From contig CBDAQV010000001.1 in NCBI GenBank assembly GCA_965199265.1, positions 444,409 to 508,408 of the forward strand: a DNA stretch of 64,000 nt, in the 5' to 3' direction. Made by a program: the position numbers. Position 1 is the stretch's first letter. Each line of letters opens with the position of its first letter. Positions 15,001-18,000 of the stretch are shown here, piece by piece. The DNA comes from Alphaproteobacteria bacterium. GTDB taxonomy: Bacteria > Pseudomonadota > Alphaproteobacteria > CALMVH01.

Positions 15001-18000
15001 GCCGAGGAAGCGGGCCACCGCACCCGCGCCAGCCTGCACGACGGCTTCTACATGGCCTTCGACGCCTACGCCGAGAGCTGGCGCAAATGGCACCAGGTCT
15101 TGGAAAAGCTCGACCGGACGCATGAAGAAACGACGCTCGACCCGTACCGCGTTTCCGCCTCGGTGATCCGCGCGCACGAAGCGACGGCTTTCACCGGCGG
15201 GTACATCGCCAGCCTTGCCATTCCATGGGGCTTTTCCAAGGGCGACGACGATCTGGGCGGCTACCACCTCGTCTGGCCGCGCGACCTGTGCGAGACCGCC
15301 GGTTCGCTGGCGGCAATGGGCGCGAAGGACGAGGTGCGCAACGTCCTGCTGTACCTCCAGACGGTGCAGGAGGCTGACGGCCATTGGCCGCAGAACATGT
15401 GGCTGGACGGCTCGCCGTACTGGTCCGGGCTGCAGATGGACGAGTGCGCCTTTCCGATCCTGATCCTGGACATGGCGCGCCGCCACGAAATGCTGCGCCC
15501 GGGCGACCTTGAGGATTTCCTGCCGATGGCGCTGAAGGCCGCCGCCTTCGTCGCCAAGTTCGGCCCGGTCACGGGGCAGGACCGGTGGGAGGAAGACGCC
15601 GGGTACTCCCCGTTCACCCTCGCGGTCGAGATTTCCGCGCTGCTCGCCGCCGCCGATCTGTTCGATGTCTGCGGCTACGCACGCGAAGCCGCGTACATGC
15701 GCGAGACCGCCGATTCGTGGAACGACCAGATCGAGCGCTGGACCTACGCGCAGGGGACGGAGCTGGCGAAATCTCTGGGGATCGACGGCTACTATGTCCG
15801 CATCTCGCCGGTCGAGGAATCCGATGCCGCCTCGCCGGTGGACGGCTTCGTCGCGATCAAGAACCGCCCGCCCGAGGACTACAACCAGCGCGCCTCGATG
15901 ATCATCAGCCCGGACGCGCTGGCGCTGGTGCGCTTCGGCCTGCGCGACGCCAAGGATCCCAAGATCAGGGATACGATCACCGCCGTCGATCATCTGCTGA
16001 AAGTCGACTTGCCGCAGGGCGCGGGCTGGCGGCGCTACAACCTCGATGGTTACGGCGAGCACGCCGACGGTCGTCCGTTCGACGGCACGGGCATCGGCCG
16101 CGTCTGGCCGCTGCTATCGGGCGAGCGCGGGCATTACGAGCTGCTGGCCGGGAACATGGAAGGCGCCAAGGCCATGCTGGCGATGATGGAGGGCAGTGCC
16201 AACGCCGGCGCGCTGATTTCCGAGCAGGTGTGGGACAGCGACGACATTCCCGGCACCGAGCTGATCAAGGGTCGCCCGACCGGCTCGGCCATGCCGCTGG
16301 TCTGGGCGCATGGCGAGTACGTCAAGCTGCTGCGCTCGGTCCGCGACAACAAGGTGTTCGACCTGCCGCCGCAACCCTACGAGCGCTATGTGAAGCAGAA
16401 GCAGGTCGGCCGGTTCTTCCAGTGGCGCTTCAACAACAAGCCGTCGACGTTTCCCAAAGGCAAAACTCTGCGTGCCGAGGCACTGGCCCCGATGCGCGTC
16501 AGCTGGACTACCGACCGCTGGGCCACCGCGCGCGAGGTGTCTAGCCACGACACCGGCATGGGCGTCTTCACCGCCGACCTGCCGACCGAAGACCTGCCGA
16601 CCGGTGCCGTGGTGACCCTCACCTTCTTCTGGCCCGAGGTGGATAAATGGGAAGGCGTGGACTTCGAGGTACGGGTGGCGTGAGAAGCAACTGGGATTGA
16701 GGTCAGGGCAATCGCTTGAAGGAACGAGGTCAGAACAAACTCTTTCCCCACCGGGGGGATAGGGCAAGGTGAGGGCGGTCAAGGTTAGATGCTGGAGAGC
16801 TGAAATCAGCGCTTCAAGCGATTGCCCTGGATTCAGATGAACGGCTACTGACTTGTTCTTGATATGTTCGTACCATGAGTTTATATTGGAGGTGACTCAT
16901 GACAGTTCGGTACAAGCCGAAAGTAGTGGTGTTGGAGGGCAGGGGCGGGCAGGTGTTCGTTGCGCTCGGCCCAGTGCCTGAGCGGAATCCGGAGTTCGAT
17001 GCGTGTTTCGCCTCTGAATGCGAGCGGCTCCCCAGGTACAATTCCGATCAGCCGCGTGTACCGGCTGGCCAGCCCGGGGCGGGAGAGTGGAGCAGCGGTG
17101 GTAGCGCAGGCGGCACCCGTGACGCGGGCGTCAGCAGTTCGGGTTGGCTGGAGAGCGTGGCCGCGCAGACCAGATATTTGGTGACGGATATTCCTGCGGC
17201 AGATTCGAGCGACCAGACCAACTTCTTTGAGGAGATCAGTAGCCTTCCATCGGCATCTCCTCGGACTCAAAGACAGTTTGTGCAGAACAATTTTGCTGCG
17301 GCAAGCGCTGCCGCTGATGAGCTCGATGTTCCCGTGGAAAACATACTTGGTCTCGCAGCTCTCGAATCGAGCTGGGGTAGGTCAACATTTGCTGCACAAG
17401 GTAACAATATGTTCAACCTTGGGGTTGATGCTCCAGGCACTAATGGCTTTATCGAGTCGGCAAGGCCGCCACATAGAAAAGTCGGACGCTTTGATGATCC
17501 AAAAGATTCTTTCGACTCCTTCGTTCAGGACACGCAAATACTTTAAGCGACGCTAGCCGAGATGGTCTAAATATTTCCGACCCCGCGACGTTGGCTAAGG
17601 TCGTTCAAGGGTCAGGAAAGTATGGAATCAATACTGATAATAATAGGCCTACGCCTACGTTCGTAGATGACCTTAGAAAGACGATCGTTGGAATGAGGTC
17701 GAGGATCGCCGCGAAACGTAAGTAGCACATCCGATGAAGTTTTTCTCGATACTCATCATCTTGCTGATCGATCTATGGTCTCATCGGCTGCCGGCTCAAA
17801 CGGTGTCCGACGCAAGAAAAGAATTTCGAGCGGACATCGAGGCCTTCCGCGATGTGCCGGACACTTCCTGCAGCGAACGCGATCCGTGGCGCGCCCGCTT
17901 CGCGGAACAAAGCCGCGTGTTCGATGCGGCGCTCAAGCTCACCGGGGCCGCCCTGAACACGGACGAGGAAAGGCCCGCCAACCCCGATGCCGCGCTGAAG

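Follow-up and report, generated by a model that had tools for sequence, protein, structure and literature searches.

Does a frameshifted peptidoglycan hydrolase gene, set among housekeeping genes, mark a working effector/immunity pair, a lysis cassette or a recoding site, or is it simply a dead gene? We addressed this question for a 64,000-nucleotide stretch of an Alphaproteobacteria bacterium genome (GenBank assembly GCA_965199265.1, contig CBDAQV010000001.1, positions 444,409 to 508,408, forward strand; hereafter referred to as the window), in which a GH73 glucosaminidase-like open reading frame (ORF) is interrupted near its 3' end. Our analysis indicates that the locus is not a working effector/immunity pair, lysis cassette or recoding site. 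Instead, the 16.7-20.3 kb segment is probably a compositionally foreign island of decaying genes, in which the GH73 gene represents the non-functional relic of a horizontally acquired polymorphic antibacterial toxin with a Tge2-family catalytic domain. The original prediction, made from the nucleotide sequence, had named a pseudogene as one of several options, and the three lesions in the window copy now favour that option. Coordinates of the features are collected in Table 1.

The predicted leaderless 215-aa ORF with a GH73 core was reproduced. Its match to the Glucosaminidase family of Pfam (PF01832) covers profile positions 3-75 of 123 and scores 36.3 bits (E 1e-8), above the cut-off of 30.2, and neither a signal peptide nor a FlgJ rod-binding domain was found in it by sequence inspection and Pfam. 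Residues 21-68 of this first frame are the leftover of a family-specific N-domain and junction motif (PRYNSDQPRVPAGQPGAGEW), and the GH73/Tge2-like catalytic domain begins at residue 126. The catalytic motif ALESSWG...GNN is intact, with Glu156 (GAA 17364-17366) in a column that is invariant across homologues; the role of the glutamate motif A-L-E-S/T-x-W-G was established in studies of FlgJ and Auto. The catalytic domain is not contained in one frame, as the stop at TAA 17544-17546 costs its last ~50 residues, out of ~150 that can be aligned with the catalytic folds of Tge2 and FlgJ. As had also been predicted, a second frame stays open beyond this stop: the frame whose codons begin at positions equal to 2 mod 3 has no stop between ~17498 and TAG 17725-17727 and reads ...SDASRDGLNISDPATLAKVVQGSGKYGINTDNNRPTPTFVDDLRKTIVGMRSRIAAKRK up to the stop. 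Joining the two frames yields a protein of 274 aa, whose PF01832 match reaches profile position 101 of 123 (38.4 bits).

A search of 5.8 billion proteins returned the 215-aa ORF itself and eight relatives with 32-44% identity. Alignments of intact relatives (280-331 aa) with the joined protein continue past the shift to a common C-terminus (...TIRGLRAIVARRKI versus ...TIVGMRSRIAAKRK). We further compared both frames with a hidden Markov model (HMM) of the family based on 22 intact members, which matched frame 0 at positions 113-254, to nucleotide ~17531 (E 2e-40), and the other frame at positions 261-310, from nucleotide 17570 (E 6e-14). Because the HMM continues into the second frame, the latter is the true C-terminus of the same protein, and the frameshift is a real departure from the intact homologues. 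For the same reason, the shift can be placed between the end of the first match and the start of the second, where 38 nucleotides stand in place of the ~18 needed for 6 residues. It had been noted in advance that a one-base correction might restore an ordinary housekeeping gene; such a correction does restore a single ORF, but its homologues belong to toxin/immunity cassettes.

The best PDB match of the window protein was 4kt3_A (E 3.3e-10); the alignment runs across the frameshift and pairs the ALESSWG motif with AQESQYG of 4kt3_A, and the family profile matched the same chain at E 4e-27. FlgJ structures came second, well behind, at 3.6e-9 with the profile and 1e-3 with the window sequence. 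The structure PDB 4KT3 shows the type VI effector Tge2PP of Pseudomonas protegens in complex with its immunity protein Tgi2PP (PMC4832377), and Tge2 is a predicted N-acetylglucosaminidase (PMC10469887); for Tge2/Tgi2 pairs, both of these articles cite Whitney et al. 2013. We then scanned GTDB species representatives for the hydrolase family, which returned 80 loci. In relatives, a conserved ORF of ~140 aa comes after the hydrolase gene, often with overlapping stop and start codons. This partner carries a signal peptide as well as the motif FGYFAVNPWTGDVWALWGC...LKPECIVED, and the top PDB match of its profile is 4kt3_B, the Tgi2PP immunity chain (E 1.4e-3). When HMMs were run on six-frame translations of 30+ loci, the partner was located 3-25 nt downstream in ~31 of the 36 hydrolase copies. 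Hydrolase/partner pairs were found across Alphaproteobacteria, Acidobacteriota, Pseudomonas, Escherichia and Enterobacter, and the neighbouring gene in P. batumici matches Pfam T6SS_Tgi2PP at 2.9e-15.

These comparisons of sequence lend good support to the predicted effector/immunity relationship at the level of the family. In intact members, the toxin would be exported independently of Sec by a route chosen by its N-domain, reach the periplasm of a rival and cut the glycan strands of the cell wall, and the translationally coupled ~140-aa periplasmic Tgi2-like immunity protein would protect kin cells. The same idea did not hold for the window locus, where no remnant of such a partner is left: tblastn found no Tgi2-like gene or fragment in the window, and neither did the HMM in six frames of 16000-20800.

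The original prediction had instead cast the next ORF as the envelope-targeted partner. Its hydrophobic leader was confirmed, but the ORF proved to be the front half of an unrelated, frameshifted gene encoding a secreted protein of ~380 aa. A word-index search with the 217-aa front half returned only itself. An exhaustive HMMER search with the 218-aa back half, however, retrieved 70 representatives at E<=1e-3 (best identity 44%), mostly ~370-400 aa long and matched through their C-terminal third. Joined between VLYQAYS and FQPGQD, the two window ORFs align over the full length of this family, with a signal peptide and all invariant residues; they were probably split when a G was lost from TAC[G]AGTTC. 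The family has conserved cysteines and at least 159 relatives in JGI metagenome contigs, and matches no Pfam domain. In 80 metagenome loci of this family, the 5 kb around it contained neither a GH73 nor a Tgi2-like or N-domain gene, and no neighbour was conserved, so that the downstream gene is indeed conserved elsewhere without the hydrolase, an outcome that the original prediction had listed as telling against a pair. Since the family occurs without these genes nearby, the ~380-aa protein is not the immunity partner. The 217-aa ORF by itself was likewise rejected as an alternative immunity protein, being half of a ~380-aa gene whose family never neighbours the toxin in the 80 loci.

In intact alphaproteobacterial members, the GH73 domain is preceded by an N-terminal region of ~115-150 aa, followed by a junction motif (NPxW..EPRxPAGxxxGGxW, or PRDxxGRW) and a short, disordered linker rich in Gly. 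Searching with a profile of the N-region yielded 52 proteins, many with GH73, and revealed at family level the arrangement expected of polymorphic toxins, namely a common N-module on alternative C-terminal domains. One protein (P0051) carries a DPBB_1 lytic transglycosylase domain (E 2.8e-7) after the N-domain and junction, and at least four further C-terminal regions were found besides GH73 and DPBB_1. A common small C-terminal domain follows the junction in three proteins from Azospirillum and Nitrospirillum (P0039, P0040 and P0042), and other C-termini follow the same junction in P0035, P0044 and P0046 and in two further Nitrospirillum proteins (L021 6524-7774 and L014 13309-14334). The Tox-Glucosaminidase/PF01832 domain is listed among polymorphic toxin systems by Zhang et al. 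2012 (PMC3482391).

A search of the N-terminus for PAAR, MIX or phage-related domains had been proposed; the family N-domain has no match in Pfam, Phage_Mu_F, PAAR, MIX and Rhs included, and no fold relative in PDB or BFVD. A further mark of polymorphic toxins, a known trafficking domain that indicates the export route, was absent from the family. PADLOC defence models returned nothing on the toxin, the immunity protein, the alternative toxins or the island ORFs. Neighbours of the family loci are mostly metabolic genes; in Nitrospirillum, one member is flanked by the gene for the large subunit of a terminase (phrog_979, 5e-41) and that for a portal protein (phrog_2662, 1e-84). In Nitrospirillum isolates (L021 11159-16941 and L014 11209-15347), an N-domain toxin and small downstream ORFs are situated in a prophage-like head module, and two further N-domain toxins lie 3-7 kb upstream of the terminase/portal member. 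This arrangement suggests a possible link between the toxin family and phage particles. 

More tentatively, and with the odds against it, the window gene may be the relic of an undescribed polymorphic-toxin family of soil Alphaproteobacteria (Stellaceae, Azospirillaceae and other Rhodospirillales) and some Acidobacteriota, in which the N-domain and the EPRxPAGxxxGGxW / PRDxxGRW junction specify an uncatalogued delivery route for wall-degrading cargo (Tge2-like GH73, DPBB lytic transglycosylase and others). Such a route could be a new loading domain of type VI secretion systems (T6SS), or packaging in phage heads or heads resembling gene transfer agents, as hinted by the terminase-toxin-portal order in Nitrospirillum. 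We also observed that the toxin gene is a compositional mosaic, with a GC content at third codon positions (GC3) of 0.71 over 16899-17200 (N-terminal region and junction) and 0.45-0.52 over 17200-17727 (catalytic region). This is as expected if a C-terminal toxin cassette had been swapped in from a donor of lower GC content.

Measured against its intact relatives, the window copy carries three lesions, and because of them the window toxin is most likely a non-functional pseudogene. First, it matches only positions 96-141 of the N-domain HMM, i.e., the last third of the N-module. Its VALGPV segment (~P0002 residues 26-31) is joined almost directly to PE..P......A....L.KYN...PRVPAG (~P0002 102-135), which points to an internal deletion of ~70 aa in the N-domain. 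Second, a -1 frameshift cuts the catalytic fold short by its last ~50 residues. Third, the immunity gene is missing entirely. The neighbouring ~380-aa gene, also -1 frameshifted, fits relaxed selection over the whole island. Broken genes were found only in the island (16684-20316), and ~55 other genes of the window are unbroken, among them genes for proteins of 697-1038 aa. This confinement of broken genes to the island speaks for genuine decay, under relaxed selection, of DNA that was acquired horizontally, and we infer that the lesions are real mutations, not assembly errors. The low GC3 of the toxin domain relative to host genes points the same way.

Several observations weigh against this interpretation. 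Both genes keep every family-invariant residue apart from the single frameshift in each, and their pristine remainder implies either that inactivation was recent or that the shifts are assembly errors. Moreover, two -1 shifts fall inside 800 bp, and such a pair could reflect a patch that is poorly polished, of low coverage or variable between strains. The N-domain deletion is deduced from relatives of only ~37% identity, and the window sequence could be a naturally short variant. As for delivery, the Nitrospirillum relatives adjoin phage terminase and portal genes, not T6SS genes, and no secretion system was seen in the window.

The main rival explanation is a sequencing or assembly error, under which the chromosome would encode a 274-aa toxin and a ~380-aa neighbour that are both intact, and both shifts would be single-base deletions of the consensus in a patch of low coverage or atypical composition. 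We regard this as unlikely, and leave it a minor share of the probability because both genes are otherwise pristine. Consistent with such errors, the affected domains of both genes have no other lesions, the two shifts have the same direction and fit one missing base each, and in long-read metagenome-assembled genomes (MAGs) of relatives, GANTC sites carry T insertions that are artefacts (GAGT[T]CG). However, neither shift zone in the window contains a homopolymer of >=4 or a GANTC site. The specific suspicion of a homopolymer error at AAATA / CTTTAAG was not borne out, as the longest base run there is 3. The sole nearby run of >=4 is AAAA at 17501, and residues encoded downstream of it can still be aligned in frame 0. 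Furthermore, an error of this kind would have spared the ~55 other genes in 64 kb, and correcting the frame would leave the N-domain truncated and the immunity gene absent, i.e., a toxin without protection. The gene trmB (57.5-58.3 kb) was suspected of being frameshifted, as a sign of sloppy assembly, but proved to be one continuous ORF.

The insertions in relatives are a pitfall in their own right. In Nanopore-derived (MFD) alphaproteobacterial MAGs, the GAG-TCG of the GH73 active site reads GAGTTCG, producing an apparent frameshift. The GANTC at these catalytic Glu-Ser codons is a CcrM site, and the T insertions look like a methylation-linked basecalling artefact, which would break genes systematically. 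Frameshift clusters at the catalytic Glu of relatives were accordingly rejected as a conserved recoding site: they are T insertions inside GANTC in long-read MAGs and go in both directions, and intact paralogues are present within the same loci. Copies in Illumina-assembled MAGs (L012, L017, L019 and L023) also have frameshifts, at various positions, and their immunity genes are intact; this parallel in relatives is a further argument for real decay in the window.

Far less probable than an assembly error is that the 215-aa ORF functions by itself, for example as a cytoplasmic or housekeeping muramidase fragment, or that it forms a phage-derived lysis module with its neighbour, as the original prediction had entertained. 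The catalytic motif is intact, a good Shine-Dalgarno sequence precedes the ATG, and relatives are weakly similar to a PHROG endolysin. Against a functional fragment stands the loss of about a third of the fold-aligning residues, and family members fall far below the NCBIfam cut-offs for FlgJ. A lysis module is further contradicted by the downstream gene, which belongs to an unrelated, non-phage family, and by the content of the window, in which we found no holin, spanin, phage structural or flagellar genes. Programmed -1 ribosomal frameshifting or another form of recoding, which would supply full-length hydrolase at a controlled low level, is the least credible explanation and barely worth retaining: although the second frame encodes the conserved C-terminus without a stop, and low expression can benefit toxic proteins, there is no X XXY YYZ heptamer in 17480-17560 and no slippery heptamer in the shift zone itself, CUU-UAA-G resembles the prfB +1 site yet a +1 shift reaches a stop after 3 codons, and intact homologues are single ORFs, with shifts in other copies lying at differing positions and in both directions.

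Table 1. Coordinates of features in and around the hydrolase locus (positions refer to the window, except in the last row, where they refer to loci of relatives)
Feature	Position	Strand	Remarks
Inverted repeat	16704..16829	.	18-nt perfect arms 16704-16721 / 16812-16829, 90-nt spacer
Sigma-70-like hexamers TTGATA-17-TATATT and Shine-Dalgarno GGAGGTG	16859..16894	+	hexamers 16859-16887, Shine-Dalgarno 16888-16894
Probable toxin pseudogene, first frame	16899..17546	+	215 codons + TAA; ATG at 16899
-1 frameshift zone of the toxin gene	17532..17569	+	38 nt where the HMM needs 6 residues (~18 nt); net +2 / -1; no slippery heptamer, base run >=4 or GANTC site
Probable toxin pseudogene, second frame	17570..17727	+	C-terminal 50-odd residues of GH73/Tge2-like domain, NISDPATLAKVVQGSGKYGI...IAAKRK, TAG
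Front half of unrelated ~380-aa secreted protein	17734..18387	+	217 codons, hydrophobic leader, begins MKFFSILIILLIDLW; HMM 2-218, E 4e-62
Back half of ~380-aa gene, -1 frame	18213..18869	+	218 aa; HMM 210-386, E 6.5e-71
Second -1 frameshift zone	18327..18354	+	from HMM coordinates of the ~380-aa family
194-aa ORF	19431..20015	-	GC3 0.70; only sub-threshold ribbon-helix-helix-like matches; last ORF of the island
GAGT[T]CG insertions in relatives	L002 15385-15470; L011 9166-9251; L020 10245-10330		intact comparison L002 10286-10371

The island itself spans 3.6 kb between a GH15 glucodextranase gene (14263-16683) and the transketolase gene tkt (20317-22410). The AT-rich patch described in the original prediction was confirmed within it, with a GC content of 0.475-0.50 over 17200-17800 against 0.62-0.68 in the flanks, and the catalytic part of the toxin gene has a GC3 of 0.45 against 0.83-0.90 in neighbouring host genes. 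About 560 nt (18870-19430) hold no convincing gene. Searches of plasmids by tblastn gave no match for the toxin or for the 194-aa ORF. No tRNA was detected in a scan of the window, and hence there is no tRNA-linked integration site, and no direct repeats of >=15 nt flank the island. An intact IS4/IS5-family transposase gene (DDE_Tnp_1, DUF4096; 12247-13074) is located 3.6 kb upstream of the island, adjoining a second low-GC patch at 13000-13600.

Upstream of the toxin gene and after the GH15 stop (16683), the predicted 18-bp perfect inverted repeat was confirmed. It can be extended to ~24 bp with one bulge, is unique in the window (0/100 shuffles give two matches) and folds with a minimum free energy of -63.3 kcal/mol (z -3.6). 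An Rfam scan of 16000-20500 at E<=1, which included the inverted repeat, returned nothing. The repeat could be an island boundary, a relic resembling a miniature inverted-repeat transposable element or an RNA/DNA hairpin. The E. coli-like promoter is present as described, with 10 of 12 matches, but one such site was found where 0.6 are expected, i.e., no more than chance, and its -10 box runs straight into the Shine-Dalgarno sequence GGAGG, which makes for an awkward geometry.

Apart from the island, the window is ordinary chromosome. It encodes ribosomal proteins, rpoA, tkt, a tal-pgi fusion, gnd, zwf, suf genes, nusA-infB-truB-rpsO-pnp and metK. It holds housekeeping genes only, and in agreement with the original prediction, no T6SS (vgrG, hcp, PAAR or tss), type IV secretion system or phage structural genes were found in the 64 kb. 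When ~15 billion proteins are compared at 90% identity, both the transketolase and the GH15 glucodextranase remain singletons, which indicates that the source organism, with its tal-pgi fusion and GC content of ~64%, belongs to a poorly sampled lineage. The fusion and the order of the genes suggest an alphaproteobacterium resembling Acetobacteraceae.

Together, these results suggest that the low-GC patch consists of a dead toxin cassette plus another broken gene, both of which should be annotated as pseudogenes. They also extend Tge2/Tgi2-type peptidoglycan-hydrolase toxin-immunity pairs to soil Alphaproteobacteria and Acidobacteriota, where the pairs carry an uncharacterised, confidently folded N-domain that is common to several cell-wall toxins. 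If this N-domain defines an export route, it would represent a new trafficking class for polymorphic toxins and offer a handle for finding more effectors. On the practical side, Nanopore-only alphaproteobacterial MAGs deserve caution, given that the GANTC of the GH73 active site repeatedly shows an inserted T that mimics a frameshift.

Compared with known systems, the window protein shares with FlgJ and AcmA the PF01832 core and the catalytic Glu motif, but differs from them in lacking a rod-binding domain, cell-wall-binding repeats and a signal peptide. Members of its family score 15-33 bits against the FlgJ equivalog models of NCBIfam, whose cut-offs are 193-606, and no flagellar genes are nearby. 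The likeness to Tge2/Tgi2 is closer: the best PDB match of the window catalytic domain is Tge2PP, the effector has no signal peptide, relatives have a small periplasm-targeted partner gene directly after it whose profile matches the Tgi2PP chain, and the pairs are often orphans far from T6SS clusters, as in P. batumici (L024). In contrast to canonical Tge2, which is ~180-205 aa long and consists of the catalytic domain only, the present family adds an N-domain of ~115 aa and the junction motif, and the window copy is further set apart by its frameshift, its truncated N-domain, the missing Tgi2-like gene and the lack of T6SS genes in the window. For MuF phage-borne toxins, a phage-packaging route has been proposed (PMC3482391; PMC5576092), which the Nitrospirillum member between terminase and portal genes recalls. 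Unlike in MuF and other polymorphic toxins, the N-domain is not MuF, PAAR, MIX or Rhs, and most loci have ordinary metabolic neighbours. In its overall design, the family nevertheless resembles polymorphic toxins, with a constant N-module, a short conserved junction, swappable C-terminal toxins (GH73, DPBB_1 and several unknowns), a downstream immunity gene, and both tandem toxin-immunity arrays and decayed copies.

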